Origin: Parcubacteria group bacterium LiPW_30
GTDB taxonomy: Bacteria > Patescibacteriota > Minisyncoccia > Phycocordibacterales > VMEP01
Length of the DNA stretch: 64,000 nt
Direction of reading: 5' to 3'
Assembly (NCBI GenBank): GCA_007375595.1
Contig: VMEP01000001.1
Coordinates: 340,694 to 404,693 of the forward strand
Position numbers and translations under genes: made by a program. Shown here piece by piece: positions 340 through 63,836 of the stretch. How positions within the stretch are numbered: position 1 is the stretch's first letter; every line of letters starts with the position of its first letter. The notes under the pieces are model-generated. The model was not told where the DNA came from. It ran no database searches and saw only the letters and a list, made by a program, of their open reading frames with translations.

Positions 340-1011
340 ATGGCAAGTAAAAGAGAAATAAATTCTCAATATGACTTAATAGCCGAGGACTATGTAAATA
401 ACCAGAGGGGATTTTTTACAGGCAAGGATGATTGGACAAGGTCTAAGTTAAAACAGGAACTAAAAAAATACAAAGGAAAGAAAATTTTGGATATAGGATG
501 TGGCGCTGGGGACGATATCAAGTGGTGTGAGGAAAATGGAATTGAAGCATATGGCGTTGAGTATTCAGAAAAAATGCTCAATTTAGCTAAGAATAACGTT
601 GCATACCCCGAGAACGTAAAAATTGGTGATTATGAAAGTATTCCGTTTGATGATAATTACTTCGATTTAGTTATGGGAAGATTTTCTTTACATTATTTAA
701 AAAATTTTGAATTGGCGTATAAAGAAATAGGGCGTGTGTTAAAAAGTGGAGGACAGTTATTAATAGTGGCGAGTAATCCTACTTACGATACATTGAAACT
801 TCAGGAAACAGATGGGGATGGCTTAATTTCCGTTAATCTATATGGAGGCCGTGTTGTCGTTAAGTTTCCACCACATACGCTAACTGACTACTTCTCTCGG
901 GAATTTTTTAGGCAATTTGTTCTACAAGAAATTATAGAATCAGAATCTGTTGATGCAGAAAATCCACTGAAAATCCCCGAGACCTTATATTTTAAGGCGG
1001 TGAAATTATAA
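340..1011 (+). CDS. class I SAM-dependent methyltransferase
   Basis: glycine-rich motif I ILDIGCGAGDD; length and layout typical of Methyltransf_11/25. Confidence 0.7.
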   Translation: MASKREINSQYDLIAEDYVNNQRGFFTGKDDWTRSKLKQELKKYKGKKILDIGCGAGDDIKWCEENGIEAYGVEYSEKMLNLAKNNVAYPENVKIGDYESIPFDDNYFDLVMGRFSLHYLKNFELAYKEIGRVLKSGGQLLIVASNPTYDTLKLQETDGDGLISVNLYGGRVVVKFPPHTLTDYFSREFFRQFVLQEIIESESVDAENPLKIPETLYFKAVKL

Positions 1012-1119
1012 GTATCTTTATTTGACAAAACACTACTTTCCTGTTAATTTCAGGGCTGGTTTTAGTCCTGTTCCAATTTAAGTTTCTAAACTTTTTCACA
1101 CAGACAGAGGAGATTTTCC

Positions 1120-2607
1120 ATGGCACAACTTTCGCCCGTACGGGCAGGAGAACCGGTTCTTAAAGGCCTCAAGCTTTTGAACCGTGGCAAGGTGCGCGAC
1201 ACCTACGATCTCGGGAGCGGTTATCTACTCTCGGTTGCAACGGACGCAATCAGTATTTTTGATTTCGTTTTGAACGCAAAGGTTCCAGGAAAGGGAATGG
1301 TCTTGACGGCTATGACCCATTTCTGGATGACGAAACTCGAGGAAGCTGGTATCTGCAAGACACATCTCGTCGCCGCGGGTGCCGCAATTGACCACTACCT
1401 CCCGAAAGAGCATCAGGGGAACGTCGACTTGCAGTCTCGGGCGATGGTGGTGAAGCAACTCCAGATGGCTCCGGTCGAGTTCATCGCTCGCGGGTACCTG
1501 ACGGGGACGGCCTTCAAGGAATACCAGAAAACCGGCAAGGTTTTTGGGGTTGCTTTGCCATCTGATCTTCAAGATGGCGACAAGTTGCCGTGCGTTTTTG
1601 ACACTCCGACGACGAAAGAAGTCGAAGGGCACGACATTCCGATGAACAGCGAAGAGGTGCGGGTGAAATATCCCGAGGAAACAAAAACCTTGCTCGCAGT
1701 CTACGAGTTTGTGCGCAAGTTTGCCGAAGAGCACGGCGTCATTTTTGCCGACACCAAACTCGAGTTCGGGTTTGATGAAAAAGGCAACCTTGTCCTCGGC
1801 GACGAAGTGGCCACTCCGGACTCCAGTCGTTTCTGGAGTTTGATGGCATGGATGGCTGAGAAAAAGAAGGAAAAACGTAAGGCGCCATCGCCGTACGACA
1901 AGCAGTTGGTTCGAAACTGGGGAATCGAGGTCGGGGTGAATAATCTTGACCCGCTTTCTTCCGAAGATGTGGAAAAGGTTCACGGGATGGAAGTCCCCAA
2001 AGAGCTGATTACCGCGACTTCGGAGATGTATCGCTACATCTTCTGGTTGCTGACTGGCATGCGCGTTGATTCCTATGTCGCCTCGAAACTGAGGGTCGAC
2101 CGGGAAATACCGGCGCGGAAGCTGGCCGTGGTTTTTGGAAGTAGAAGCGACTACGCAAAGGCGGGAGTACAACTTGCTGTTGCTCAAAAGTACGTTGGGA
2201 ACCGGTTCCTCGGAAAGCTCGACGTTCATGTTTTGAGTTGCCACAGGAACCCGTTGTATCTCGTTGAGTTTGCGGGAAGCGGATGTCTTGGTGCAGATGT
2301 CGTCATCGCCGTCGGCGGAAAGGCATTTGCTTTGCCTGGGGTTCTCGATGCCCATCTTCATGCAGAAGGCTTTAGAATCCCCGTCATTGGTGTTGCTCTC
2401 GGCGAAGAAGGAAGCGAAGAGTTGCTTGCGGCAGAACTCTCGATTTCCCAGATACCAGGGCAGACGGTGCTCATGGACGAAAAGGCTGGTGTTGTCTACC
2501 GCAACACCGACGGCCTTTCAAGGGCTATCGTTCGGGCGACGTTCTCCGAATTGCCACCGATGCTTCCGCGGGTGGAAAAGAAACCGGAGTTTTTTATCAA
2601 GTCTTAA
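1120..2607 (+). CDS. purCE: bifunctional SAICAR synthetase / AIR carboxylase (PurC-PurE fusion, PAICS-like order)
   Basis: N-terminal half matches PurC (KVRDTYDL, LLSVATDAISIFDFVL); C-terminal half matches PurE (VVFGSRSDYA, GGKAFALPGV); region clearly more GC-rich than its surroundings. Confidence 0.8.
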   Translation: MAQLSPVRAGEPVLKGLKLLNRGKVRDTYDLGSGYLLSVATDAISIFDFVLNAKVPGKGMVLTAMTHFWMTKLEEAGICKTHLVAAGAAIDHYLPKEHQGNVDLQSRAMVVKQLQMAPVEFIARGYLTGTAFKEYQKTGKVFGVALPSDLQDGDKLPCVFDTPTTKEVEGHDIPMNSEEVRVKYPEETKTLLAVYEFVRKFAEEHGVIFADTKLEFGFDEKGNLVLGDEVATPDSSRFWSLMAWMAEKKKEKRKAPSPYDKQLVRNWGIEVGVNNLDPLSSEDVEKVHGMEVPKELITATSEMYRYIFWLLTGMRVDSYVASKLRVDREIPARKLAVVFGSRSDYAKAGVQLAVAQKYVGNRFLGKLDVHVLSCHRNPLYLVEFAGSGCLGADVVIAVGGKAFALPGVLDAHLHAEGFRIPVIGVALGEEGSEELLAAELSISQIPGQTVLMDEKAGVVYRNTDGLSRAIVRATFSELPPMLPRVEKKPEFFIKS

Positions 2608-2639
2608 TTGCCAGCAGGTTGGTAATCGAGCATACGGGC

Positions 2640-2712
2640 GGGTCGGTTCATTCTGACCCGTCTTTTTTTTTGTAAAAAAACAAGCGCCCATTACTAGGCG
2701 CTTGCGTTGATT
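2640..2712. terminator. two hairpins between the convergent purCE and purN genes
   Basis: cgggcgggtcggttcattctgacccgtc + T9, then caagcgcccattactaggcgcttg. Confidence 0.5.
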
Positions 2713-2720
2713 TGGAGACT

Positions 2721-3392
2721 CTATTCGTCAAAGGCCCGACCTGACATCATGCTGGGATAAACCGAGCGATGGTTCGCCCCATCCCAAGAGATGAACCCGT
2801 TGACTATCAGGTTGGTCACTTCTGCTTGATACATGTGCTCGCAGTGGTTGACGCGCTGTGCCAGAGTTTCCGGTGTGTCGTCGTCTTTGATGCACACTTT
2901 CATTTGGAAGAAGATTGGACCGAGGTCGTACTTCTCCGTAACGAAGTGCATCGAGACCGCAGAGTGTGAAATTTCACCACGGCGGAACGCCGCCATTACC
3001 GCTTCGTGAACACGGTGCCCATAAAGACCAGGGCCACCAAACTCCGGCAGGGGCCCAGGGTGAATATTGAACACCGTTTGCGAGTTGAAGTTCGTTCGCG
3101 GGTCAAGCCCAGTCACGAGCTTCAGCCAGCCAGAGAGAGCAAAAAAATCAGCCCCCGACTCCCTTGCGATACGTTGATACCCTTCAGCGTTCCATGGACC
3201 ACGGAAATGGATGAATGGGATATCAAGCTCTCCGGCCTTTTCCCAGACACCACCATTTTCGTGGTTTGAAACCACTCCGACAATCTTGGCATCAAGTATT
3301 CCTGTGCGCGATGCTTCCACGAGCTTCCTGAAACCACCGCCACCACCGTCTTTTGTGCCCGCCGCAAAAACGAGAGTCTTTGGTTTGCTCAT
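2721..3392 (-). CDS. purN: phosphoribosylglycinamide formyltransferase
   Basis: VFNIHPGPLPEFGG matches the PurN NIHPSLLP motif; Formyl_trans_N-like N-terminus; GC-rich. Confidence 0.8.
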   Translation of the reverse strand: MSKPKTLVFAAGTKDGGGGGFRKLVEASRTGILDAKIVGVVSNHENGGVWEKAGELDIPFIHFRGPWNAEGYQRIARESGADFFALSGWLKLVTGLDPRTNFNSQTVFNIHPGPLPEFGGPGLYGHRVHEAVMAAFRRGEISHSAVSMHFVTEKYDLGPIFFQMKVCIKDDDTPETLAQRVNHCEHMYQAEVTNLIVNGFISWDGANHRSVYPSMMSGRAFDE

Positions 3393-7559: not shown

Positions 7560-8156
7560 TTGGTAAAAAAGTTTTTTCACATGCAATATACTCAAAAAAT
7601 CAAAGAAGCCATCCGTGTTGCGATCAGGATTCACGAAATAGATCAAAAACAAAAACGGAAAGGCAAAGATATCCCATACATAACACACCCGCTTGTTGTT
7701 GGCCTTATTCTTGCTAGAATTTCAAAAGACGAAGATGTTGTTGTTGCTGGAATATTGCACGATACCGTTGAGGATAGCGTTGATGAAAAGAAATTTACCA
7801 TTGGAATGATAAAAAAACGCTTTGGCGAAGAGGTTTCAAGGATGGTTGACGACGTTACCGAGAAAAATAGGCATGTTCCATGGCTTGAGCGTAAAAAACA
7901 GAATGTTAAGAAAATAGCCACTCTTCCTAAAAACTCGCTTTTAATAAAAGCTGCTGACACTGTGGCAAATTGTACTGAATTAATTTCCGATTTTCGTAGA
8001 GAAGGGGACGATACTTTTCGCAGATTCAATGTTCCTAAAGAAAATCTTATCGAACATTACGTTGAGATTATTGAAGCGATAAAAAAGGCTTGGCCAACAC
8101 ATCCTTTGCGAAGCGATCTTGATTACCACGTCTCTGAATTGAGGGCGATGTTTTAA
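7560..8156 (+). CDS. small HD-domain (p)ppGpp hydrolase-like protein (RelA/SpoT HD domain only)
   Basis: ITHPLVVGLILARI...VVAGILHDTVEDS matches the SpoT/RelA hydrolase HD motif; alternative start at M8 (7581). Confidence 0.6.
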   Translation: MVKKFFHMQYTQKIKEAIRVAIRIHEIDQKQKRKGKDIPYITHPLVVGLILARISKDEDVVVAGILHDTVEDSVDEKKFTIGMIKKRFGEEVSRMVDDVTEKNRHVPWLERKKQNVKKIATLPKNSLLIKAADTVANCTELISDFRREGDDTFRRFNVPKENLIEHYVEIIEAIKKAWPTHPLRSDLDYHVSELRAMF

Positions 8157-8359
8157 TTTTTTATGTTGCCCACGTGTTTCTGGGGAACATTGACATATTT
8201 CTACGTTTAAGGCTTAATACTCGAAGTTCTTTAATATTTTTTTGGTCATAGTTAAAAGGTACTGAATTTTTTGGTGTTTCTTAGCTATGACCAAAATGGT
8301 CTGGTCCGGCTCGTGGGTAGCGAGGGTATTAATCGGCAATTAGCCGAGAGGAGAATTTT

Positions 8360-9031
8360 ATGGGGCGAATCAACGAACTTAACGATTTCACTCGGGGTCA
8401 ACTAGACGCCGCTTTGATGAAAATCGGGCAAGATGCTGGCATGGGAACAGCAGAAGGTATCCGTGCGTTTCTTCGCGGCGAACTCTCGATTTCCTCACCA
8501 CCTCGTTCGTGGCGTGAGGAAGACGGTGTCATCTACTTCAGCGTCACCCCTGATGGTGCGGACGGCGAAACTTGGATTACCTTACTAGAAGGCAATATTT
8601 TTCTTGTCGAATACTGTGCTAAAGAGGTACTCCGTTCGCCTTCTTTCAAGTCGACCAATGGCGTGACGACCGAAGTCGCTGTTCTCAAGGGAATGCTCTT
8701 CGAGGATCAATGTCGGATCACCGAGTTGATTCGCGCACATGCGGAAGCTTTCAGAACGCCCGACAAGCGCAAGCTCGAAAAGCCGAATGCTGAACTGGCT
8801 TGCCTCATTCGTCGGAAGTTCACAGATAAAGAGATCGAGGCTATGGGGCTGACATGTATTGTCGCCATGCACGAACCCATCAATGACTCCGACGGCAATC
8901 CGGGCTTGCTGAGCGCGCGCCGTGACGGCGGTGGTCGCTGGCTCAACGCGTACAACGGCAGATCTGACTGTAGGTGGGGCCGTGACCACGGGTTTGCGTT
9001 CGCCGTGTCGCAAGCCCGTCCGACTGAATGA
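8360..9031 (+). CDS. hypothetical protein in a GC-rich island
   Basis: Long ORF with SD gagaggag; composition sharply more GC-rich than flanks; no motif recognised. Confidence 0.5.
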   Translation: MGRINELNDFTRGQLDAALMKIGQDAGMGTAEGIRAFLRGELSISSPPRSWREEDGVIYFSVTPDGADGETWITLLEGNIFLVEYCAKEVLRSPSFKSTNGVTTEVAVLKGMLFEDQCRITELIRAHAEAFRTPDKRKLEKPNAELACLIRRKFTDKEIEAMGLTCIVAMHEPINDSDGNPGLLSARRDGGGRWLNAYNGRSDCRWGRDHGFAFAVSQARPTE

Positions 9032-17950: not shown

Positions 17951-18004
17951 TGTATAAAAACGGCGGAGCGCGAAATGTTGACAAATACTGCGTTTAGGTG
18001 TATA

Positions 18005-18120
18005 GTACTAGAGAGGTTCTTTGAATTATAACTTGCGTTTGCCACAGCAGAAAGTGGCTTAATATATAGGCCTTTTTCTGCTATGGCAAACCTTCGCACG
18101 AAGGAGCCCTCTAGTACACA
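18005..18120 (+). promoter_or_regulatory. long imperfect hairpin (~115 nt) immediately upstream of the RBS of the 18133 gene
   Basis: gtactagagagg...ccctctagtac outer stem; gtttgccacagcagaaag...ctttttctgctatggcaaac inner stem. Confidence 0.35.
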
Positions 18121-18132
18121 AGGAGAAAGACA

Positions 18133-18771
18133 ATGGGACAAATCACCATCGACCAATCCCATCAGGTTCTTGCCACTCTGGCTGTGAATACTGACTGGAC
18201 AACGATTGACTTCACGAACTCGGGGCTTCAGGATTTCATCGTTCGCAACCCGAAGGAAGCTGGCAGACAGTTCACGGCGTTCCTCAAGAACGGCGGGAAG
18301 GTCCTCGTCGGCGAACCGAAGGTCATCACCATCAAACGTGGTCGCTTCAATCCAACCGAGTTCATCGGACAGGGCTGGAGCATCATTACGGACGAGACGG
18401 ACACTCGTTCCACGGCGCTCACCGAACTGGACCTCACCAAGATTCAGCAGGTGACGATGCTCAAGAGCGGCGAGACGTACGTGAAGGGCGAGGAGAAGCT
18501 CAGGCGTCTGAAGAAGTCGGGCAACATCCGACTGGACGCCGACGTCTTCCACACGCTGTGGGAGAACCAGCATCTCATCCCCGAGTCGTGGAAGGAGAAG
18601 GTGAACGGGAACACTCGGTTCATCTACTTTGACGGCACGGTCCTTCGGGACTCGGACGGTAGCCGTTACGTTCTGTACCTGTATTGGAGTGACGGTGCGT
18701 GGAACTGGTACGTGGGTTGGCTCGGCAACGACTGGTACGATCACAACCCGTCTGCCGTTCTCGCAAGTTAG
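18133..18771 (+). CDS. hypothetical protein (GC-rich) with a Trp/Tyr-rich C-terminal module
   Basis: SD aaggagaaagaca; C-terminus RYVLYLYWSDGAWNWYVGWLGNDWYDHNPSAVLAS is duplicated at 19128-19253. Confidence 0.5.
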   Translation: MGQITIDQSHQVLATLAVNTDWTTIDFTNSGLQDFIVRNPKEAGRQFTAFLKNGGKVLVGEPKVITIKRGRFNPTEFIGQGWSIITDETDTRSTALTELDLTKIQQVTMLKSGETYVKGEEKLRRLKKSGNIRLDADVFHTLWENQHLIPESWKEKVNGNTRFIYFDGTVLRDSDGSRYVLYLYWSDGAWNWYVGWLGNDWYDHNPSAVLAS

Positions 18772-19111
18772 TACTCGGGCTTTGGTCATTGGCACTTTTT
18801 GGAGCCTTTGACCTTTGTCTTCGGACCCTGCATCTGCTTACACAGATGTGCAGGGTCTTTTCGTATATAAAAATATCTATATAATAATTTGTGGCAGTAG
18901 GTGGATATCAGTGCGTGTTTACGGATGCGTACCACCGAACCCAGTATCCTTATATCCAGAGTATTTGAGATTACGGTTTCAGATAGCGTGGTGTATGTCA
19001 GACACTTCAAAAAATGAAGCTACTTGGTATAGCGTATTAAGGCATTACAATGCCGAAGACAGTGGAACACCCACAGACAACCTTGAGAGTATTCGAGGGG
19101 TGGTGATATGG

Positions 19112-24491: not shown

Positions 24492-25406
24492 TCATTTCGC
24501 TTTTGCGGGAACGAGCTTGAGCCACCGGATTGAAACGAACTCGTAGTTGACGAAGCCGAGTACTGCCCCGACGACCGCACCGAGGACGGCGCTTCCGAGG
24601 GAGAAACCGACGACAGCACCAAGCGTTGCGTCGACGAAACAGAGCGTTCGGCGTTCGGAATGAACGTAAACGAAAGTCCGCACGACGAAACGCCAGGTCT
24701 CCCTGCAGAGGAAATAGGCTAGCGTGACGATGGCGTCCATGATGCGCGCCTTATTTTCCCAGAGATACTCGCCGACACCGCAAAGCGTGTGCGCGAAGAG
24801 CCACAACAGAAAAAACGGCAGGATGATTGGGTTGCCGTATTTGAAGACGAGCAACCCCATGGACATATCACGAGAGAGAAATTCTTGGTACGAGCCTTTT
24901 GTGTCGTAGTCCAATTTTTGCCAGTATTTTTTCTTGTTGGTGAACGGCCAGAAAAGCGCGCCGACGACCAACATGGTCGTAACAAGATAGAAACCGACCC
25001 CCACCCCAGAAATGAGACTGTGAACCACAGGCTCATTTTCTGGGGCGGGCCACTCGAGGTAAGAAAATATTGCGTGGGACATCAAGGCGAAAGACGTTGC
25101 GAGCGCCAAAAGCCCCAACACCGACGCAGCCGTCGCTTTCCAATACAGCGGATATCGCTTCCATGTGGTTGCCCTATGGTACGCACTAGCGACATTGCCG
25201 GCGCTTACGCGATACGAACGGGCGACACCGGCGCAGAAGTTCTGGAAGTCCACCGCACAGTAGGCAACAAGACCGCCGAAGATCGCGCCGACACCCCAGA
25301 AGTACGAGCCGTACTCGAAGCGCGCCGAGATTTCAATGGCGCTTAAGGCACCAATAAAGGCGCCAAGAGCACAGGCAAACATTACGGACAAAGATTCCTT
25401 TTTCAT
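24492..25406 (-). CDS. hypothetical integral membrane protein (GC-rich island)
   Basis: SD ggagg + ATG (MKKESL); multiple TM helices; GC-rich. Confidence 0.5.
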   Translation of the reverse strand: MKKESLSVMFACALGAFIGALSAIEISARFEYGSYFWGVGAIFGGLVAYCAVDFQNFCAGVARSYRVSAGNVASAYHRATTWKRYPLYWKATAASVLGLLALATSFALMSHAIFSYLEWPAPENEPVVHSLISGVGVGFYLVTTMLVVGALFWPFTNKKKYWQKLDYDTKGSYQEFLSRDMSMGLLVFKYGNPIILPFFLLWLFAHTLCGVGEYLWENKARIMDAIVTLAYFLCRETWRFVVRTFVYVHSERRTLCFVDATLGAVVGFSLGSAVLGAVVGAVLGFVNYEFVSIRWLKLVPAKAK

Positions 25407-25540
25407 GGTGTTCCTCCATTCGTTTAGGTTGTGACTCACTAACAAAGAGCCGATTTAACACGTTTACTGTCTCGTAACGTATAACGTTTACAGATCTTTG
25501 TCAACGCACCAAAAAAGTATGCTAAAATACGGCTCAATTT

Positions 25541-28012: not shown

Positions 28013-28081
28013 GCGAGTATAGTTTAGTGGTAGAATGACTGCTTCCCAAGCAGTAGATCGGAGTTCGATTCTCCGTACTCG
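28013..28081 (+). tRNA. tRNA-Trp (anticodon CCA)
   Basis: cloverleaf: acceptor GCGAGTA/TACTCGC, anticodon loop TCCCAAG, T-loop GGAGTTCGATTCTCC. Confidence 0.85.
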
Positions 28082-28089
28082 CACATTAT

Positions 28090-28123
28090 AAAAAATACCC
28101 CATCTTTGCGGGGTATTTTTTAT
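28090..28123 (+). terminator. terminator hairpin after tRNA-Trp
   Basis: aaaaataccccatctttgcggggtatttttt. Confidence 0.6.
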
Positions 28124-28132
28124 AATGACGAG

Positions 28133-28222
28133 GGGGATCGAAAGCCGGAGGCAGACGTGCCGAGGCGGGGTCGCGCAAATTTCTAGCAAGAAATTATGCG
28201 TGACCGATTCTCCGTACTCGCA
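28133..28222 (+). repeat. tRNA-3'-end-associated repeat element, short form (copy S1), ending in an 18-nt direct copy of the tRNA-Trp 3' end
   Basis: tcgaaagccggaggcagacgtgccgaggcggggtcgcgcaaatttctagcaagaaattatgcgtgac + cgattctccgtactcgca (= tRNA-Trp 28064-28081). Confidence 0.7.
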
Positions 28223-28337
28223 CGAATTCTTGTTAAAAACTTGATTATGGTTATTTTGTATTATTTTCGTGTAGATTTGTGTTTTGGCTTTATGATATAA
28301 TCAGCGTCCATTAGAAATTAACGGGTGTGGAATATGA

Positions 28338-28450
28338 ATCCCGTTAGAGGCCGCGGTCGCGCGGGATGGGAAATAAATAATATAAGAAGTAGAAGTACGA
28401 TTTATAAGTTTAATTAATTTGCAGGAAGTGGATTGACCGCGACCTGCCTC
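28338..28450 (+). promoter_or_regulatory. long-range stem-loop in the 5' leader of the glutaredoxin gene
   Basis: cccgttagaggccgcggtc (28338-) pairs with gaccgcgacctgcctctaaacggg, which ends at the start codon. Confidence 0.3.
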
Positions 28451-28458
28451 TAAACGGG

Positions 28459-28692
28459 ATGAAAAAAGTCACTATTTATAGCACTCCAACTTGCGTTTAT
28501 TGTAATATGGCAAAAAGCTATTTTCAGGAAAAAAATGTTCCTTACGAGGAGTTCAATGTTGGGCAAGATTTTGAAAAACAAAAGGAAATGATTGAATTAA
28601 CTGGTCAGCGTGGTGTGCCAGTAATTGTTATAGACGGAGAAGCAATAGTTGGTTTTAATAAACCAAGGGTTCAGGAGCTGTTGGGTTTATAG
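28459..28692 (+). CDS. glutaredoxin-like (NrdH/Grx) thioredoxin-fold protein
   Basis: CVYC active site after beta1; GVPVIVIDGE motif. Confidence 0.75.
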   Translation: MKKVTIYSTPTCVYCNMAKSYFQEKNVPYEEFNVGQDFEKQKEMIELTGQRGVPVIVIDGEAIVGFNKPRVQELLGL

Positions 28693-28699
28693 GTTTAGA

Positions 28700-28870
28700 T
28701 AATTCAGGGCGGAATCGGTCACGAATAAAATTTTGCTAAATTTTTGCGCTGTCACAGATATTTTCCTGCTGGAAAATTCTGCGACCCCGACTCGGCTCGA
28801 CAGCCTCCGTCTCTCAATTGCTTCACTTATCGCAATTGAGCCCGCCTCGCGCCGTCGCGCTCCGGCCGGC
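28700..28870 (-). repeat. tRNA-associated repeat element, long form (copy A), downstream of tRNA-Arg
   Basis: about 150 nt near-identical to 36945-37085; read on the minus strand it is ccggagcgcgacggcgcgagg..ggggtcgc..hairpin..cgtgaccgattcc, the same termini as the short form. Confidence 0.7.
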
Positions 28871-28924
28871 ACCATGTAAAAACACTCACTTATGTGAGTG
28901 TTTTTACATGGTGCCCTCGGCAGG
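28866..28924. terminator. 22-bp palindromic hairpin incorporating the tRNA-Arg 3' end
   Basis: ggcaccatgtaaaaacactcac ttat gtgagtgtttttacatggtgcc. Confidence 0.6.
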
Positions 28925-28985
28925 AATCGAACCCACAATTACCCCTTAGGACGGGGTAGTTATATCCATTTAACTACGAGGGCGC
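28909..28985 (-). tRNA. tRNA-Arg (anticodon CCT), CCA encoded
   Basis: acceptor GCCCTCG/CGAGGGC, anticodon loop GTCCTAA, T-loop TTCGATT; the T-stem has two G.U pairs. Confidence 0.7.
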
Positions 28986-29169
28986 TTTAAAACCATACCA
29001 TATTAAGATGTTTTTGGTTGTTGATTATCGCCATTGTTTATTTTTATTTAGTATTGTATAGTTTGGGCTGATTTTCCATTTAATTTAAAGAAAGGTAGGT
29101 GGAAAAGTTCTTTGAGCTTAACGAGCTTTGGAGGTTTTGTTTTCAAAAACATACAAAAAGGAAAGAGCT

Positions 29170-29577
29170 ATGCAACAAGTGCAAACTGTATCCAAAAAGA
29201 AGGCCAAGCCAGCCTTCGGCAGGAAATCTTCCGCTCGGGCTGATCATTTTTTCGACCGGCATTCGCCGGTCGAAGCTCGGCCAGTGGTGGCGTACTCGCC
29301 GGGATTTGCGGCGAGGCACATGGTTCCAGTACGCGTCGGAGAAAACGGGCACATCACCGCCAGTGTTTCCGAACTTTGCGGTTTTTTGCGCAATGGCAAC
29401 GCATCGGTTATCGGCGTGAAGAAGATGGTCGAAGTCGAAATCATGCGCGGGAAGCGAATGCGTGTTGTCACGCGCGAAGTGATTGACCCCGGTCCCAACT
29501 GCGATGTCGTCGTTTTCACGAACATGACGACGCCACATTGCTACGCCCTGAAGTCTCAGGTCAAGAGCGGCCTATAA
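29170..29577 (+). CDS. hypothetical protein in a GC-rich island
   Basis: SD aaaggaaagag + ATG (MQQVQT); GC-rich; terminator follows. Confidence 0.45.
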   Translation: MQQVQTVSKKKAKPAFGRKSSARADHFFDRHSPVEARPVVAYSPGFAARHMVPVRVGENGHITASVSELCGFLRNGNASVIGVKKMVEVEIMRGKRMRVVTREVIDPGPNCDVVVFTNMTTPHCYALKSQVKSGL

Positions 29578-29978: not shown

Positions 29979-30051
29979 GCCGAGGTAGCTCAGTTGGTAG
30001 AGCATTTCCCTGAAGAGGAAGGGGTCGCCGGTTCAAATCCGGCCCTCGGCA
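29979..30051 (+). tRNA. tRNA-Phe (anticodon GAA)
   Basis: GCCGAGGTAGCTCAGTTGGTAGAGC...CTGAAGA anticodon loop...GGTTCAAATCCGGCCCTCGGCA. Confidence 0.85.
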
Positions 30052-30215
30052 CACGAACAAAGTGAAGTGGGATGAGGGAACGAGTGAACTGCTTCACTCG
30101 TGTCCGGATTTGAAGGTCGGAACATGTCGCAAAGCGACAGTGAGACGGGGTCGAGAGTACTTATGAGCGTAGCGAATTAGTAACTCGTGACCAAATCCGG
30201 CCCTCGGCACACGAA
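30052..30215 (+). repeat. repeat element downstream of tRNA-Phe plus a direct repeat of the tRNA-Phe 3' end and downstream flank
   Basis: interior gtgaactgcttcactcgtg..gacggggtcgagag..ctcgtgac related to the S1/S2 elements; caaatccggccctcggcacacgaacaaagtgaggtggg (30192-) repeats 30034-30071. Confidence 0.65.
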
Positions 30216-30891
30216 CAAAGTGAGGTGGGGTGATGGAGCTTTTTAACAGAAGAGAACCATTGATTTGTGGTTTATTTGGTCTGCAGAATATACTTTATAC
30301 TGATATACTTTAAAAATGGAAAAAGTTGAAGTAGAAATAACCACGAAAGAATTGCTTGAACGGTATAACGAAAGATTCGCCGACAAAAAGGATATAACTC
30401 TTAAAGATCTTTCTGAAATGAAAGAAAGTGGAATCTCCGCTGAAATGTTTCTTGAGTTTCTTCGAGAAAAGTACGACTATTTATTTCACGGCTCAAGAAA
30501 TGAGATTTCTTTTGCGGATGGAGTAAAACCTTCAAAAGATGGCGTTATTTTTTCTTCAGATAATCCTTCCGTTGCAATACTTAAAGCTATTTACCGTAAT
30601 AACGCTAAAAATCTCGGCTATCCACTTAATTTAAAGGAAGACAAGTCTAATATGGTATTGGTTATTGATGAACCACAAGAAGATACTATTGGCGAGAAAG
30701 GTTACGTTTATGTTATTTCTGATAAAACAGGTTTTAAAAGAGATCCCAATAGTAATTGGCAATACTTAAAAGAAAATACAGCGGAAGAAAATACCCCTTT
30801 TGTTAAAAGGGTTGAGGTAGAAAGAGCTGATTTTAAATATCCCGTGCAAGTAAATTAGTAACCAGCGATTGAGTCCAGCCCTCGGCACACT
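30192..30891 (+). mobile_element. about 0.7-kb insert bounded by the second and third copies of the tRNA-Phe 3' end, carrying one ORF (candidate decayed integrative islet)
   Basis: third copy gagtccagccctcggcaca at 30873-30891 (1 mismatch to tRNA-Phe ATCCGGCCCTCGGCACA); no integrase present. Confidence 0.45.
30316..30858 (+). CDS. hypothetical protein (cargo of the tRNA-Phe-flanked insert)
   Basis: 180-aa ORF; no recognisable motif. Confidence 0.45.
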   Translation: MEKVEVEITTKELLERYNERFADKKDITLKDLSEMKESGISAEMFLEFLREKYDYLFHGSRNEISFADGVKPSKDGVIFSSDNPSVAILKAIYRNNAKNLGYPLNLKEDKSNMVLVIDEPQEDTIGEKGYVYVISDKTGFKRDPNSNWQYLKENTAEENTPFVKRVEVERADFKYPVQVN

Positions 30892-36876: not shown

Positions 36877-36912
36877 CTATTATAACTTACGCTTGTGGTC
36901 AGGAATAATTTA
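36877..36912 (+). repeat. left copy of a ~32-nt direct repeat flanking long-form element B
   Basis: tataacttacgcttgtggtcaggaataattt vs tatagcttacgtttgtggtcaggaataattt at 37104-37135. Confidence 0.6.
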
Positions 36913-36919
36913 CACTCTG

Positions 36920-37090
36920 CATGGTTGGGGGGTCGGCTACACATAAAATTTTGCTAAATTTTTGTGCAGTCACAGATATTTTCCTGCTGGAAAATTCTGC
37001 GACCCCGACTCGGCTCGCCAGCCTCCGTCCCTCAATTGCTTCACTTATCGCAATTGAGCCCACCTCGCGCCGTCGCGCTCCGGTTTTCGA
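36920..37090 (-). repeat. tRNA-associated repeat element, long form (copy B)
   Basis: near-identical to 28727-28865; includes hairpin ctcaattgc..gcaattgag and palindrome attttcctgctggaaaat. Confidence 0.7.
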
Positions 37091-37103
37091 CTCCTCACTA
37101 TAT

Positions 37104-37135
37104 ATAGCTTACGTTTGTGGTCAGGAATAATTTTA
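37104..37135 (+). repeat. right copy of the ~32-nt direct repeat flanking element B
   Basis: see 36877-36912. Confidence 0.6.
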
Positions 37136-37139
37136 TTGC

Positions 37140-37200
37140 CGTCGCAATAAAATTTTCACGACCCTGGCTCGCGATTTTGTCTGCTGACAAAATATCGCTC
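37140..37200 (-). repeat. E2-type repeat element downstream of tRNA-Val
   Basis: cacgaccctggctcgcgattttgtctgctgacaaaatatcgctccgcctcg, homologous to 39360-39425 and 63720-63770. Confidence 0.6.
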
Positions 37201-37210
37201 CGCCTCGCAC

Positions 37211-37245: not shown

Positions 37246-37250
37246 GCTTG

Positions 37251-37323
37251 TGCGCGATAGAGGAGTCGAACCTCTGACCTACCCCACGTCAAGGGGTCGC
37301 TCTACCAACTGAGCTAACCGCGC
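37251..37323 (-). tRNA. tRNA-Val (anticodon GAC)
   Basis: revcomp GCGCGGTTAGCTCAGTTGGTAGAGC..CTTGACG anticodon loop..GGTTCGACTCC..ATCGCGCA. Confidence 0.8.
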
Positions 37324-38719: not shown

Positions 38720-39313
38720 TCAGTTTGAAGCACTCGGGTCGTTGGTTAAAATCTGAATTGATGTCTCCCACGCTTCGTCTGGAGTCTCGAATACTGGATA
38801 TCCGTATTTATTTGATTCTTCCTTATAGCGCGGTCGTTCGCCATTGAAAAACGCATCTGATTCTAATTTCTGCAATTCTTCTGAAGCGCCCCAACGGGGT
38901 TCCTTCATGTTTCTCTCCAGTGTCTCTTCGAAAGACCGTCCGATTATTGCAATACCCGGAATACCCAAGTCTTTATGTGCTAAATGCGGAAGTATGTTCA
39001 CGCCCTCAAAAATAATTGGACGTACCTCGTTGGCATATTGAGCAAGTCCCGCAAGGATTCCTGGCCAGAATCCCTCAGACTGTGTCACAAGATTCTTCCA
39101 TTGTTCGTCGTAATTGGTGGTTGTGTAGTATGTGTATTCATCCTGATCGAGGTAATAGTTTACCCACTTCTTCCAGTGTTCATCTTTCGCCAAATCCTCG
39201 CGCATATCATCAATTGACACGCAAATACCTCCAACTTCTTCGGCGAGCCTCTTGCCTAGGTACGACTTTCCTGCGGTCGGAATTCCTGTGATGAATAATC
39301 GTTGTTTGTTCAT
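38720..39313 (-). CDS. P-loop NTPase / small kinase-like protein
   Basis: Walker A GIPTAGKSYLGKRLA near the N-terminus. Confidence 0.5.
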   Translation of the reverse strand: MNKQRLFITGIPTAGKSYLGKRLAEEVGGICVSIDDMREDLAKDEHWKKWVNYYLDQDEYTYYTTTNYDEQWKNLVTQSEGFWPGILAGLAQYANEVRPIIFEGVNILPHLAHKDLGIPGIAIIGRSFEETLERNMKEPRWGASEELQKLESDAFFNGERPRYKEESNKYGYPVFETPDEAWETSIQILTNDPSASN

Positions 39314-39351: not shown

Positions 39352-39496
39352 GTGCGGAGATGGGAGGAATTTCTCCCTCGGCTAAATTTTTGTCGCCACA
39401 AAAATTTGCCTAGGCACCAGCTCGTCATTTTGTCTGCTGACAAAATAAGACTCCGCTGTTCGAATCCTCACGCAAGTGAAGCAGTTCACTTGCTCC
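39352..39496 (-). repeat. E2-type repeat element downstream of tRNA-Ser, ending in a 16-nt direct copy of the tRNA-Ser 3' end
   Basis: tgcggagatgggagga at 39352-39367 equals 39531-39546; interior hairpin attttgtctgctgacaaaat; inverted partial T-loop copy gttcgaatcctc at 39440-39452. Confidence 0.65.
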
Positions 39497-39530
39497 ACTC
39501 CACAAATAAAAAACTGCTGGTTTTTTATTT
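39497..39530. terminator. palindromic terminator after tRNA-Ser with a TGCTG loop
   Basis: caaataaaaaactgctggttttttatttg. Confidence 0.55.
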
Positions 39531-39531
39531 G

Positions 39532-39618
39532 CGGAGATGGGAGGATTCGAACCTCCGATGAGGTTACCCCCATGCCTGATTTCGAGTCAGGTGCCTTCAA
39601 CCGCTCAGCCACATCTCC
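39532..39618 (-). tRNA. tRNA-Ser (anticodon CGA), class II with long variable arm
   Basis: revcomp GGAGATGTGGCTGAGCGGTTGAAGGC..CTCGAAA anticodon loop..long variable arm..GGTTCGAATCCTCCCATCTCCG. Confidence 0.8.
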
Positions 39619-39747
39619 AATATTTGAGTGGCTTGAATGATAACGTTTTTTTGCATTTTTAGCAAAAAATGTTATGATTTCACGGTGTTTTTGGCTAAAA
39701 CAATTTCTTATGAAATTGTTCGCCCGACCAAGCAAAGCTTGGATTAG

Positions 39748-39819
39748 GGCCCTATCGTCTAACGGTTAGGACACAAGCTTTTCAAGCTTGGAACCAGGGT
39801 TCGATTCCCTGTAGGGTCA
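39748..39819 (+). tRNA. tRNA-Glu (anticodon TTC)
   Basis: GGCCCTATCGTCTAACGGTTAGGAC..CAAGCTTTTCAAGCTTG..GGTTCGATTCCCTGTAGGGTCA. Confidence 0.8.
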
Positions 39820-39882
39820 CAAAAATTTGCGGAAGCATAATTTTTTATGATTTTTAAAAGTGACAAATTCACTTTGTAAAAA

Positions 39883-39968
39883 ATCGAAAACCGGAGCGCG
39901 ACGGCGCGAGGTGGGGTCGAGCAAATTTCTAGCAAGAAATTATGCGTGACCGATTCCCTGTAGGGTCA
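39883..39968 (+). repeat. tRNA-3'-end-associated repeat element, short form (copy S2), ending in an 18-nt direct copy of the tRNA-Glu 3' end
   Basis: atcgaaaaccggagcgcgacggcgcgaggtggggtcgagcaaatttctagcaagaaattatgcgtgac + cgattccctgtagggtca (= 39802-39819). Confidence 0.7.
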
Positions 39969-40188
39969 TTCGGTTTTCAGTAAAGGTTAGTTGTTTCGAT
40001 TTATCCCCCATCTCCGCTAAGATTAAAACATGAAAAATTTTTCATTTTCTAACGTAACAGTATTCATAATCTTTTTCGGAATAGCTTTAATTGAGGCGAT
40101 TCAGAAAGATAATTGGCTAGAAGCGTTTCTTTTTCTTGCATTAGGGGCAATGTCTCTCTGGGCTGATTTTCAGAAAAAATAATTATTT

Positions 40189-51725: not shown

Positions 51726-52674
51726 AATAATTAATTAAAAAAATCCGCCACCTTTATGGGTGAAGCAGATTATTTCCCAGATTCGCTTGTGTACTACTTA
51801 AACTGGAGCCAAGCGAGGTTAACTGAGAAATCCGCTATTAATGACAAGAAGGTAACATAAAAGCCCCAAAAACTCAATATTCATGATTTTACTTTTCCTT
51901 TTTAAAAACACGATAAAATTCTGCTGAATTTTTCTATACTCACGCCGAGCGTTCCGTAATGTTTTTAAAAAGGAAAAGCTTTAGTTTTTTTGAATAAAAA
52001 ACAACAAAAAGAAAATAAAAATTCTAAATAAAAAAAGTTAAAAGCCCGCAATGATGCGGGCTCCCCCAATTCGGCTTTTACGGTCGTCTGGGGGGACGAC
52101 GATAGGGCTCGTTTCGGCGCATGGCGGTCTCCATTGTGTGGACATGCCGTTTCGGGTTTTTGTCAGGAACCCGAAATTAAACAACTACCTCCTTTTTGTT
52201 GTTGAAGATGTGAATGAGGATACGGCCGGGGCAACGCGCTGTCGCCCCGGCCTCCCCAAACGCGGGAGAGTTTCCCGCGAACAGTCGTCCGCCGATGGCG
52301 TTATCCCAAGATGGGACAGGCCGAGCGAGGCGTGACGGCTGGTGCTACCCCAACTTTCGTTGGGTCTTGCTGGCTTGCCGCCGGCCTGGTTTCAGGTCGC
52401 GCCGGCGCTGCCGAGCTTCTTCTCGATGATGGCCTTGCCCTTGTCGTCGATGGCGTTATGGAATACATTCCTCTTTGCCGTTGCCGGCGGGCTGTGCACT
52501 TGCATGGGGGGGGCTCCTTTCAGAACTTCAACTTTTGGTTTTTAGGTTAGAAACCAAGGGTACCAAACTGCCCCTTTTTGAAACGTGCTGCTAGGGAAAA
52601 GGTTAGCACACAGCCATGTTATTGTCAATAGCCAAAATATCCTTTATTTAAAGGATATTTTGGTATATTAACGT

Positions 52675-53952
52675 TTAAATTTCATGGAAAAGTGTCTTTT
52701 TTCTCTCCTCAAAAAAGAGAACAAACGTTAGCCAGGCGAGAATACTCATGGCGCCGGCGATTAAAATCGGAAGATTAACAGAGATTGTGGCAGCAAATCC
52801 AGCGAGTATTGGTGGAAGTGCTTGGGCAAGCGACTGGATTGATTGATTGATTCCAAGAATTTCACCTTGGGATTCTCCGTCAGCTAAGTTTGAAACGATT
52901 GCGTTGTAGTTTGGCATTGAGAGGCCATTCCAAATTGAAATAAAAGGAACAATTAAATAAAGATAAACTGCTTTGTCTGGCAAAAGTAAAAATGGGAAAG
53001 TTAACCCAAGTAGTAATGTTGAAAAGCGGAGAATTTTTACGGAGGAAAATTTAAAGGAAAGTGGGCGAACAATGAATCCTTGGGTTATTGCGATACAAAG
53101 CCCCATGTATGCGAAAAGATTTCCGATATTGCTTTGGGTAAAAGAAAACTTATCTATAAGAAATACTTGGAAGAATTGAGTAAAAAAAGAAAAACCGAAA
53201 GCTAAAAGAAAAATAACAATGAAAATAACTCGGAGATTTTCCATGCGAAAAGCTTTGTTGATATTTTGGAACCCAGTTAGTAGTGAGATTTTTTTGTGAA
53301 CTCTTGTTTTTAGTGTTTCTTCAAATTGGGAATGAACTAGTAGAATGTTTGCAATTGTAAGAATTGCTGAAAAGAAAAATGGCGTTGCGTAATTGAAGGA
53401 GCTTGAAATTGATGGATCGGAAAGCACTCCACCTAAAAACGGTCCGATAATAAAACCAAAACCGAACATCATTCCAACGAGACCGAAGTTTCGAGCTTTG
53501 TTATTTTCGTCACTAATGTCAGCTATGGAACTATAAGCAACAGACAAACTTCCTCCGGTAAAACCAGAAACGATTCGACCCAAAAACATAATAGGTAAAC
53601 TAGCGGTAATTATCCCCACCGCTGTCATTAAATATCCAAGAAACATTCCACTTAATGATGCGAGGAAAATTGGCTTACGTCCGATTCTATCTGATAGTCC
53701 GCCTAAAATTGGAGCCCCGAAGAATTGTGCTAGTGGATAACAGGCAAGAAGAAAGCCTAAGATAATGTTTCGCACTTCGGTGCCATATGATGGTGGGAGG
53801 ATGCCCGTTTGGTGCATATCAAGGAGGAGTGGGGCAAAAATCGGGATAACGATACCAAGCCCGACTAAGTCGATAAAGACAATTGCGATTATTGGGAGTA
53901 GGGGGTTTTTTCTTAGTGACATAAATTTTTTTAAAATACTTTTGAAAAACAC
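52675..53952 (-). CDS. major facilitator superfamily transporter
   Basis: 12 TM; MFS motif A GGLSDRIGRKP between TM2 and TM3. Confidence 0.8.
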   Translation of the reverse strand: MFFKSILKKFMSLRKNPLLPIIAIVFIDLVGLGIVIPIFAPLLLDMHQTGILPPSYGTEVRNIILGFLLACYPLAQFFGAPILGGLSDRIGRKPIFLASLSGMFLGYLMTAVGIITASLPIMFLGRIVSGFTGGSLSVAYSSIADISDENNKARNFGLVGMMFGFGFIIGPFLGGVLSDPSISSSFNYATPFFFSAILTIANILLVHSQFEETLKTRVHKKISLLTGFQNINKAFRMENLRVIFIVIFLLAFGFSFFTQFFQVFLIDKFSFTQSNIGNLFAYMGLCIAITQGFIVRPLSFKFSSVKILRFSTLLLGLTFPFLLLPDKAVYLYLIVPFISIWNGLSMPNYNAIVSNLADGESQGEILGINQSIQSLAQALPPILAGFAATISVNLPILIAGAMSILAWLTFVLFFEERKKTLFHEI

Positions 53953-54100
53953 GTATAATTTTCTGCTGAAAATTTACTATGCTCGCGTCGCCACGCTGTG
54001 CAATGTTTTTCAAAAGTATTTTGGGATGACTAAGTGCAAAAATGGTATTTTAAAAAAGACACTTTAAAGCAACCAAAATATTTGGTATAGTCATTGGAAT

Positions 54101-61879: not shown

Positions 61880-62341
61880 TTATATCTGGAGCCCCATCTT
61901 GATTGGCGTTGTTTCCCCGTCGTCGAGGATAACGCAAACCCTTTCTCCACCTTCGAAGTTTCGCATGATCCGTTGTTTTGGACCAACACGCGCCACATAT
62001 CCGTCGGGGTAGATGAACTTGACGTTCCCTTCCTTCCCGATTGGGTAGATAGTGAACGGCCCAACTGGGATGGTAAAACATGAGGGAAAGTCGGCCGTGA
62101 CCAGGATCTCAGTAGGGTTTCGTGGTGCCGCTGGACCACGCGCGATTTCCTCGGCTTTGGCTTTTTCAGCCTCGGCGCGATACTCCTTCACGTAGTCTTT
62201 TCCAGACCAGTATAGTGGGATGACAAGAAGGATGATGACGGGCCACTTCGCCGCTTTTTTGATGAAATTAAGCGGTTTCTGGCTTTCGGCCACTATCCCA
62301 GCTTCCTTTGTTCGGCTTTCGTGTGTATCTGTCGTTGCCAT
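61880..62341 (-). CDS. NfeD-like membrane protein (putative partner of the adjacent SPFH protein)
   Basis: N-terminal TM plus C-terminal beta-rich domain; gene order SPFH-NfeD typical of stomatin operons; GC-rich. Confidence 0.4.
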   Translation of the reverse strand: MATTDTHESRTKEAGIVAESQKPLNFIKKAAKWPVIILLVIPLYWSGKDYVKEYRAEAEKAKAEEIARGPAAPRNPTEILVTADFPSCFTIPVGPFTIYPIGKEGNVKFIYPDGYVARVGPKQRIMRNFEGGERVCVILDDGETTPIKMGLQI

Positions 62342-62356
62342 GATGACTCTCCTAAA

Positions 62357-63463: not shown

Positions 63464-63577
63464 GATGACTCCTTTTCAATGTGCGTTTAGCTAGGCGAAA
63501 TACCAAGCTATTACTGTCTATCATTATACATAAAATGACCAAAAAGTCAAGGTGGGGAAGGGGGTTATAAAATGAAA

Positions 63578-63836
63578 AGAGGGAGACTCGGTCAGGGGTA
63601 AAATTCAAGAAGAGATGGAGACCCGGTCATGAATAATTTTGAAGACAAAATAAGTTCACATAGATTGTGAGGAGAGATTCGGTCAAGAACATTTTTACTC
63701 GTCGTCACTCGTAAAAATTTCTCGACCCTGCTCGTTCGACCATTTCTGCTGAAATGGTACCCGAACTCGCTTTCGAGTCTCCCCTCCGAGCAACAAACAA
63801 AATCACCCGATGTTTTCACATCGGGTTCTTTGTTTG
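63578..63836 (-). repeat. array downstream of tRNA-Leu: terminator, inverted copy of the tRNA 3' end, E2-type element, and three degenerate direct copies of the tRNA-Leu 3' end
   Basis: ttcgagtctcccctccgagca (63773-63793) is an inverted copy; gagggagactcggtca (63578-), gatggagacccggtca (63613-), gaggagagattcggtca (63669-) are degenerate direct copies of ggaggggagactcg; E2 core ctcgaccctgctcgttcgaccatttctgctgaaatgg. Confidence 0.55.

Follow-up and report, generated by a model that had tools for sequence, protein, structure and literature searches.

Hairpin-folded repeat modules beside the tRNA genes of Patescibacteria, tentatively read as parts of small integrative cassettes

The window analysed here, a 64,000-nucleotide stretch of Parcubacteria group bacterium LiPW_30 (contig VMEP01000001.1, positions 340,694 to 404,693), carries downstream of its tRNA genes a family of short repeats, here called E. 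The E family is real, abundant, conserved across many lineages of Patescibacteria and apparently undescribed; no description of an E-like family was found in the literature searched. We tentatively read E, with somewhat less than even confidence, as the conserved hairpin-folded recognition module of tiny, mostly gene-less integrative cassettes that are specific to Patescibacteria and served by a trans-acting factor. An initial annotation of the window had placed such repeats behind at least six tRNAs; calls with ARAGORN and Rfam gave seven tRNA genes, and all seven have a family member downstream, on the tRNA strand. That annotation did not reach the phylum-wide conservation, the covarying hairpins of the core, or the copies found upstream of tRNAs, at 5S rRNA genes and at sites without an RNA gene.

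Read on the tRNA strand, the parts of a unit follow a general order: the tRNA gene, whose positions 56-73 form segment A; a terminator X; an arm B; the linker AAAG; the core E, made up of hairpin 1 (HP1), GGG and hairpin 2 (HP2); GTGAC; and a direct copy C. Arm B, overlooked until now, is an inverted copy of the same tRNA end and lies directly 5' of every core. In folding, B pairs with A or C, which places E at a three-way junction. The core pattern CCGGAG-N4-ACG-N4-GAGG-N-GGG-S-TC occurs in the window four times exactly and twice with three mismatches, against 0.00 expected in shuffles, and a covariance model of the core (R1) scores 77-87 bits on four window copies while also finding the weaker E2, Phe and E3 variants.

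The direct copies reported earlier behind three tRNAs were all found again, one of these tRNAs having been taken for Trp where ARAGORN calls Gly(CCC) at 28013-28084. Thus cgattctccgtactcgca lies at 28066-28083 within tRNA-Gly and again at 28205-28222, cgattccctgtagggtca lies at 39802-39819 and 39951-39968 (Glu), and the Phe repeat of 38 nt (37/38 identical, 97.4%) lies at 30034-30071 and 30192-30229. A 16-nt copy at Ser was also correctly seen, although it occupies 39353-39368, one base away from where it had been placed. The boundary always falls at T-loop position 55/56, in agreement with the claim that identity to the tRNA starts inside the T-loop, and the units lack an open reading frame (ORF), as had been stated. 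The two long forms, estimated before at about 95% identity, are 96.5% identical over 141 nt (28725-28865 and 36943-37083), and a 31-nt direct repeat (36881-36911, 37103-37133) brackets the one at Val. Arm B is degenerate at both Gly and Glu; at Leu it matches 16/16 nt of the tRNA end and continues further with one extra base. The tRNA genes and E units of the window are as follows; loci in other genomes are cited by L numbers.

28013-28084, + strand: tRNA-Gly(CCC) (ARAGORN, Rfam); positions 56-73 (28066-28083) are segment A of the Gly unit.
28085-28126, + strand: Gly terminator hairpin X, a palindrome of 18 bp that separates the tRNA from the inverted arm (sequence, palindrome search).
28127-28140, + strand: Gly arm B, a degenerate inverted copy of the tRNA-Gly 3' end.
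28141-28204, + strand: Gly E1 core with AAAG linker, comprising HP1, GGG, HP2 and GTGAC (model R1 86.9 bits, pattern, fold).
28205-28222, + strand: Gly segment C, an exact 18-nt direct copy of tRNA-Gly positions 56-73.
28711-28717, - strand: decayed segment C (cgattcc) of the Arg unit.
28718-28865, - strand: Arg E1-long, with the HP1 module duplicated and extra hairpins (model matches at 28821-28869, 28750-28814 and 28721-28749).
28909-28983, - strand: tRNA-Arg(CCT) with encoded CCA (ARAGORN); with its terminator at 28875-28908 the whole covers 28875-28983.
29979-30052, + strand: tRNA-Phe (ARAGORN); segment A of the 38-nt repeat is 30034-30071.
30080-30112, + strand: Phe accessory hairpin gtgaactgcttcac (30080-30101) and arm B ccggatttg (30104-30112).
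30113-30191, + strand: divergent Phe E core (covariance model 34.7 bits).
30192-30229, + strand: Phe segment C, a 38-nt direct copy that takes in tRNA-Phe positions 56-73 and 20 nt of trailer (97.4%).
36936-37096, - strand: E1-long of the Val array (36936-37083) and arm B gaggagtcg (37088-37096).
37120-37206, - strand: E2 unit beside tRNA-Val (covariance model 18.2 bits).
37250-37323, - strand: tRNA-Val(GAC) (ARAGORN).
39353-39493, - strand: Ser unit, with C 39353-39368, E2 39369-39458, B gaggattcgaa 39459-39469 and accessory hairpin 39472-39493.
39531-39618, - strand: tRNA-Ser(CGA) (ARAGORN).
39748-39820, + strand: tRNA-Glu(TTC) (ARAGORN).
39882-39968, + strand: Glu unit, with B aatcg 39882-39886, linker and E1 core 39887-39950, and C 39951-39968, an exact 18-nt copy (84.4 bits).
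40006-40017, + strand: orphan tRNA-Ser 3' fragment, an inversion breakpoint relative to L121.
51892-51978, - strand: E3b, a second reduced copy in its own perfect 18-bp inverted repeat (20.3 bits; fold z -5.75).
53933-54022, - strand: E3a, a reduced E core in a perfect 18-bp inverted repeat at a non-tRNA site (27 bits; fold z -7.96).
63560-63792, - strand: Leu array, with B 63772-63792, E2 63682-63771, and decayed junctions (TGAC followed by CGxGTCTCC) ending at 63626-63634 and 63591-63598.
63837-63921, - strand: tRNA-Leu(TAG) with encoded CCA (ARAGORN, Rfam).
63967-64000, - strand: 3' half of one more E core, truncated where the window ends (covariance model 33.3 bits).

Covariance analysis across copies, suggested in the initial annotation, brought out two covarying hairpins in the core. 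Other genomes supplied 117 of the 119 distinct cores aligned, and the window 2; over all of them the two-hairpin structure is paired in 97.8% of cells, compared with 33-49% in slid controls. Compensatory change on both sides was seen in 14 of the 21 pairs (438 cells), a score reached by none of 500 shuffles, and RNAalifold, run independently, gave the same two hairpins. About 25 of the 60 core positions are invariant or nearly so, comprising CCGGAG, the ACG of the GACG loop, GAGG, GGG, TCG, the bulged A, the AGCA loop and GTGAC; the invariant bulged A and an unpaired G7 are extrahelical. The base 5' of CCGGAG and the variable base that follows GAGG covary (G-C 90, A-U 20), a pair that lengthens HP1 across an internal loop in which tandem G.A pairs are possible. 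A G33.T63 wobble is kept in 118 of the 119 copies, which indicates that the G-rich (tRNA-sense) strand is the folding strand, as RNA or single-stranded DNA.

The core was scanned for in one genome per species, giving at least 120 stretches; counts of copies downstream of tRNAs rest on the matches listed. Of the 120 listed, 118 are from Patescibacteria, the other two being GC-rich chance matches, and the lineages among the matches listed include Saccharibacteria, Parcubacteria/Paceibacterota, Nomura-, Kaiser-, Berkel-, Vogel- and Taylorbacteria, and Minisyncoccia. Neither a scan of 2.9 million viral contigs nor blastn against phage and plasmid collections returned a match. In the window, Rfam 15 reported only tRNAs at gathering score, and nothing relevant in 28085-28905 up to an E-value of 10. 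Among the matches listed, 66 of 124 cores have a tRNA, of almost any isotype, on the same strand less than 400 nt upstream, and at least 90% of cores share the orientation of the adjacent tRNA. Segment C begins at T-loop position 56, usually copying 18-23 nt perfectly and ending two bases past the discriminator; most related loci have perfect direct repeats of 17-28 nt, with repeat lengths across loci ranging from 7 to 60 nt. Where C has decayed, B still matches the active gene end (L007, L010, L058, L060).

Strain comparison shows that the units turn over. The only syntenic relative found via homologues of a 180-aa ORF was L121 (about 93% identity), the other contigs being non-syntenic. The window and L121 differ in their units at five of the six shared tRNA loci: L121 has an extra unit at Arg and an extra decayed unit at Gly, the window is about 300 nt longer at Val, and the tRNA-Ser/tRNA-Glu pair is inverted between the window (39353-40017) and L121 (18040-18520), with different units. 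The E3a site is empty in L129, where the intergenic stretch is 52 nt as against 148 nt; no palindrome is present there, so the inverted arms either arrive with the insertion or are created by it. The comparison of orthologous loci that had been proposed with the initial annotation thus found sites that are not uniformly filled, so a signal conserved everywhere was not seen. Units are nested or arrayed at tRNA genes, compensatory changes between strains keep the long hairpin formed by gene end, terminator and B, and conversion from core to core was seen in L080.

The alleles at tRNA-Arg show how the parts travel together. In the window and L080, a tRNA ending in CCA is followed by one terminator (terminator-old), a short B, E1-long and a decayed C. 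In L132, the same tRNA without CCA is followed by another (terminator-new), B, E2 and the same decayed C. In L121, the tRNA without CCA is followed by terminator-new, B, E2 and GTGAC, and then by a CCA-bearing tRNA end with terminator-old, B and E1-long, which is the expected product of an L132-type cassette integrating into a window-type allele. The Arg alleles therefore indicate that a unit moves with its own gene end and terminator, displacing the former gene end, and that two cassette types swap at one site and can stack. CCA was found in the displaced copy but not in the active end at 4 of 28 loci, in addition to Arg in L121; the reverse was never seen. As for CCA in general, it is encoded by some tRNA genes (Arg 28909-28911, Leu 63837-63839) and not by most, in the window and related loci alike, and active tRNA ends beside E units almost always read discriminator-CA-A/G.

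Copies also occur in settings other than the standard tRNA 3' end. A 'CACAAAC' subclass makes use of the last tRNA bases and the trailer; its first hairpin is built from the tRNA end, B and, between them, the conserved loop GAGCGAAGCGAA. In a second context, an E with its own P1 hairpin sits inside a partial direct copy of the gene start and is followed by a spacer and then the intact gene; such tRNA-upstream copies read positions 1-24, then E, then positions 27-45 (L086, L024, L103, L015, L052, L079). The downstream and upstream contexts are circular permutations of one three-way junction. The copies at 5S rRNA genes (L038, L002, L042, L046, L013) share the arrangement of the second context, lie at differing sites and are mostly antisense to 5S, which argues against an RNA-level origin of the 5S-adjacent copies. 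Reduced copies (E3a, E3b) and divergent ones occupy ordinary intergenic sites inside perfect, locus-specific 18-bp inverted repeats.

Two loci of these kinds deserve separate mention. In L103 (2335-2690), an E unit with a copy of the first 24 nt of a tRNA sits immediately upstream of that tRNA gene, which ARAGORN missed and which is interrupted by a group I intron (Rfam, 70 bits). In L073 (1400-3000), the ribosomal protein S20 gene is flanked by divergent E copies, with other small hairpin repeats nearby; the closing stem of these copies (GTGCCCA.../...TGGGTAC) differs in sequence, and the G.T wobble is kept at the same place.

In the reading that we tentatively prefer, a cassette would consist of a replacement gene end (tRNA position 56 to about 75), a terminator, the inverted arm B pairing with that gene end, AAAG, E (HP1-GGG-HP2) and GTGAC. 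It would enter by one crossover of Campbell type within about 20 nt of identity with the end of a resident structural-RNA gene. The resident gene would stay intact, its end and terminator now being those of the cassette, and the old end C would be pushed past E together with the old CCA and terminator. Repeated entry would build arrays, and recombination between repeats would delete, swap or invert units. Structure, part order, insertion polymorphism and the displaced old gene end can be read directly from the loci, and no local enzyme accompanies them; the mobile form would be a free circle or a folded single strand, with gene end and B as a stem beside the E hairpins, much as in the attC sites of integrons or the attP hairpin of CTX phage. 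A trans-acting recombinase, host Xer-type or another, would act on it, possibly aided by natural transformation and RecA. Such a model accounts for the part order, for old ends that are displaced, for arrays and repeats of variable length, and for the inversions and swaps; crossover within shared sequence fits repeats of 7-60 nt, whereas a fixed staggered cut does not. The initial annotation had offered two versions of mobility. Its non-autonomous element aimed at tRNA 3' ends agrees with polymorphic ORF-less units, one empty site, nesting and the constant 55/56 boundary, but no tyrosine integrase or other recombinase was found in the window or in cargo-bearing units. Its scars of one element with relaxed specificity do not agree with arms that match each unit's own tRNA, nor with the import of a gene end and terminator with the unit.

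In some loci, 1.5-7 kb of cargo lies between E-bearing repeats (a defence island; NUDIX and HAD genes; peptidase S51). One example, L018 (288-7700), has 6.9 kb beside tRNA-Asn with a GmrSD-like nuclease, an EcoRI-type methylase, an SDH protease and AbiEii/AbiEi, between direct repeats of about 200 nt, each with an E module and tRNA-Asn fragments; in L028 and L063, the accessory genes enclosed by E-bearing repeats span 4.4 kb and 1.5 kb. The cargo of these three loci contained no recombinase, and searches with Pfam and NCBIfam detected no integrase, transposase or reverse transcriptase among the approximately 55 ORFs of the window or the 17 ORFs of cargo-bearing units. When 904 ORFs around the 120 listed loci were clustered, only housekeeping families recurred, none specifically enriched near E, and no Y1 transposase family was among the recurrent neighbours of the E loci listed. 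A recombinase that co-varies with the repeat, as the initial annotation had suggested looking for, thus did not emerge as an enriched neighbour. A highly conserved, housekeeping XerC/D-like tyrosine recombinase gene does lie 3-6 kb from E in L005, L069, L078, L087 and L099, that is, near 5 of the 120 listed loci versus roughly 1 expected from a random 8-kb sample; the linkage is not tight, and the proximity may reflect synteny with a tRNA-Arg/Gly cluster or be a lead to the enzyme.

Several observations weigh against cassettes of this kind. No enzyme for E was found in the 64-kb window, and nothing specific near the listed loci. E cores of the same genome are near-identical (96.5%) at different tRNAs, yet their arms match their own tRNA, so that frequent gene conversion of cores or re-templating of arms would be needed; the simple cassette model does not provide re-templating, and leaves unexplained how one core serves every tRNA with arms that match. 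An identity of 20 nt is short for RecA. The number of invariant core positions exceeds known att/attC conservation and resembles catalytic or tightly bound RNA. The tRNA-upstream copies, with their own P1 hairpin inside a partial gene copy, differ in geometry from the downstream ones. Lastly, the polarity of the Arg alleles, insertion as opposed to deletion, is one that we infer.

Since the arms may be re-templated, a guide-programmed mechanism stays a serious rival, although we consider it rather unlikely. In such transposition only (loop)-B-E would be mobile, B being a 6-18 nt guide that pairs with a single-stranded target, E a scaffold for a trans-acting protein and C a target duplication, a logic like that of guide pairing in IS200/IS605, IS110 bridge RNAs, and the pairing of exon- and intron-binding sites (EBS/IBS) in group II introns. 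The homology of the E1-long copies starts exactly at CCGGAG and stops near GTGAC, with locus-specific arms; the E3a and E3b arms differ from each other while each is internally perfect over 18 bp; in the 'CACAAAC' class the GAGCGAAGCGAA loop and B complete the element's first hairpin with the tRNA end; and B tracks the active gene end where C has decayed. A mobile part confined to (loop)-B-E is hard to square with a tRNA-proximal terminator that varies by allele and moves with the unit, with duplications too variable for a defined staggered cut, and with a B that is short or degenerate at Gly and Glu although A and C are perfect; no candidate protein was found. Equally doubtful is a related proposal of an element without protein genes and programmed by nucleic acid, in which E would be the scaffold and B a rewritable guide choosing the target by base pairing, and the unit of gene end, terminator, B and E would pass through a folded circle of single-stranded DNA or of viroid-like RNA self-cleaved at GUGAC|C. 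Another unlikely explanation takes E as a functional structured RNA, either a self-cleaving and ligating ribozyme forming a viroid- or retrozyme-like circle between such sites, or a cis-acting element for processing, termination or decoy in tRNA transcripts; in both versions the gene-end copies would serve RNA pairing. This is suggested by about 25 invariant single-stranded or junction nucleotides beside freely covarying stems, by the kept G.U wobble, by what may be a tandem G.A pair with a bulged G, by circular permutation of one three-way junction as in hammerhead and twister ribozymes, by the shared orientation with the adjacent tRNA in at least 90% of the listed cores, and by the compensatory changes that maintain the gene-end/terminator/B hairpin. 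Yet a retro-route would need reverse transcriptase, and group II introns are reported to be absent from Patescibacteria, an indirect argument only (PMC13011429). Most copies also sit downstream of strong terminators and lack their own promoter, those next to 5S are mostly antisense, no Rfam family appears even at an E-value of 10, and C includes genomic trailer and lacks CCA unless encoded, so it does not come from mature tRNA.

Passive spread of a hairpin-rich repeat, by RecA recombination after transformation via tRNA or 5S homology and by template switching at hairpins, appears quite unlikely. It would accommodate the variable repeat lengths, inversions, inter-repeat deletions and core-to-core conversion; these bacteria have genes for competence (DprA-like in L123); and quasi-palindrome correction, an established mutational route, speaks for it. 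It leaves unexplained the near-invariant 60 nt across lineages, the constant 55/56 junction, the constant orientation, and the de novo appearance at almost every isotype. That the units are tandem tRNA pseudogenes, or a conserved termination or processing signal of tRNA operons present at every orthologous locus, is highly improbable. The gene-end copies and terminators do adjoin tRNAs, but copying is limited to positions 56-75 and the left arm is inverted, which disposes of the pseudogene account that the initial annotation had named as a test; presence and absence between close strains, the one empty site, and copies at sites without an RNA gene speak against a fixed signal.

Other candidates were rejected. 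A group I or group II intron remnant does not fit units that are too small and have no Rfam match, with an intact gene always adjacent; group I introns do occur in tRNAs of Patescibacteria (PMC13011429), with no match to E units. Reverse transcription of mature tRNA from its CCA end would not give copies without CCA and with trailer, double snap-back synthesis is at odds with new and old terminators that differ, and insertion into a pre-existing palindrome is at odds with an empty site that has none. A target duplication of fixed length does not agree with direct repeats of 7-60 nt, nor does a tRNA minihelix mimic with a B that pairs through the T-loop as a continuous stem.

E behaves much like cassettes of integrons and integrative mobile elements exploiting Xer (IMEX), and like tRNA-targeting islands, yet it departs from each in the defining features. 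Integron attC sites, including those of clusters of attC sites lacking integrases (CALIN), are likewise short, strand-specifically folded hairpins with conserved structure and bulged bases, and integron cassettes likewise form arrays at one entry point, may be empty or have promoterless cargo, and rely on an enzyme outside the cassette. In contrast to the RYYYAAC/GTTRRRY core sites of attC, the E consensus is AAAG-CCGGAG...GTGAC, with no GTTRRRY in 119 cores. Where integrons have intI/attI at the array head, E arrays start at a tRNA, with no recombinase among the approximately 55 window ORFs. Unlike integron cassettes, those of E enter at a tRNA or 5S gene, carry a replacement gene end and terminator, and conserve the sequence of E itself. 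For CTX phage, an IMEX with a single-stranded hairpin attP recombined by host XerCD, the order predicted after integration, with a loop, an inverted copy and a spacer between two copies of the site, equals A, X, B, E, C, and no element-encoded recombinase is needed; E differs in that its target is not dif, its stem sequence is locus-specific, no Xer-binding consensus was recognised, and its length is 130-300 nt and not that of a phage genome. Integrase islands at tRNA or tmRNA genes and their derivatives without an integrase, the cis-mobilizable elements (CIMEs), share a crossover between T-loop and 3' end, a restored gene end, a displaced old end, and tandem arrays. As in these, direct repeats of the tRNA 3' segment (18-38 nt in the window) flank the insert with an intact gene on one side, but no integrase was found in the window, L018, L028 or L063, and no parent element was found. 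E is moreover 100x smaller, uses one module for all isotypes, 5S and other sites, and has an additional inverted arm.

Among small repeats, miniature inverted-repeat transposable elements (MITEs) and repetitive extragenic palindromes (REP/REPINs) are, like E, small, non-coding, multicopy, hairpin-forming, intergenic and non-autonomous. The arms of E are locus-specific and equal to the local tRNA end, however, in place of the conserved termini of a MITE, and its duplications of 7-60 nt are not fixed; in contrast to the REP/REPIN-RAYT system, E has a 60-nt two-hairpin core and not a palindrome of 20-40 nt, and no RAYT or transposase partner was seen. Palindrome-associated elements (PATE) derived from IS200/IS605 enter 3' of a set tetra- or pentanucleotide and leave no duplication; E has duplications, with junctions that vary between the T-loop, the D/anticodon region, 5S and other sites. 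Retron non-coding RNA has a1/a2 inverted repeats around msr-msd and a reverse transcriptase gene beside it; the inverted arms and hairpins of E are similarly arranged, no reverse transcriptase gene adjoins E in the window, and E is multicopy. Mauriceville and Varkud retroplasmid variants of Neurospora, described by Chiang, Kennell and Lambowitz in 1994, reportedly fuse to tRNA and integrate by homologous recombination. Like E, they join one core to different tRNAs, integrate at the matching gene and duplicate tRNA segments; their route needs reverse transcriptase and copies mature tRNA from CCA, whereas E copies start at position 56, include trailer and have no CCA unless it is encoded. The dual-guide RNAs of TIGR-Tas gave no match to E (PMC12045711); in contrast to the two short guides of TIGR-Tas and IS110, which read neighbouring, non-overlapping segments of opposite strands, B and C are fully complementary to each other, and there are neither arrays of 36-nt units nor a gene for a Nop-domain protein or DEDD recombinase.

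The genomes of Patescibacteria are tiny and streamlined, yet nearly every tRNA gene examined carries units, and these turn over faster than point mutations accumulate. If E belongs to integrative cassettes, the ends, terminators and promoters of essential RNA genes would be remodelled across the phylum and their neighbourhoods inverted and shuffled, defence and metabolic genes would be brought in with no recognisable recombinase in the unit, and tRNA-adjacent assembly breaks and strain variation in these genomes would be explained. Should the arms be rewritable guides or the core a ribozyme, the system would be a new programmable one of tool-like character; a nucleic-acid-programmed E would be a new class of programmable element, or a ribozyme, confined to Patescibacteria, able to target essential RNA genes without host death since the gene end is restored. 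The E core is a 60-nt marker for the phylum, and points to a protein or RNA activity that recognises a precisely conserved fold.

Some smaller features of the units recur. The hairpin gtgaactgcttcac (30080-30101 and 39472-39493 in the window; also in L121 and L133) splits arm B exactly between its acceptor-stem and T-stem parts. A hairpin insert of about 14 nt, resembling AAGCGTACTCGCG, breaks the T-loop of copy C just 3' of GTGAC in L045, L092, L119, L028 and L133-L135, and is thus present in several unrelated genomes. Another kind of tRNA-targeting insert, which likewise replaces what its insertion breaks, is found on the - strand of L121 (16600-16800), where a cassette of about 120 nt interrupts the resident tRNA-Val(GAC) in its D-loop; this cassette is a complete second tRNA-Val, with a different acceptor stem and an encoded CCA, between 14-nt inverted repeats (CCCCGCCCGAACGG).

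The window as a whole has a GC content of 40% and a housekeeping gene content. Patches richer in GC (48-53%) lie at 1001-3000, 8001-9000, 18001-19000, 24500-25500, 29128-29577, 52040-52560 and 62001-63000; one carries purine-synthesis genes, and several contain ORFs on both strands with no Pfam or NCBIfam match. A foreign origin of these patches is possible. The AAA_18 ORF at 38720-39313 is not in L121. In L133-L135, tRNA-Arg is inverted relative to its neighbour, and the 149-aa GC-rich ORF at 29128-29577 is kept beside tRNA-Arg there as well as in L121.

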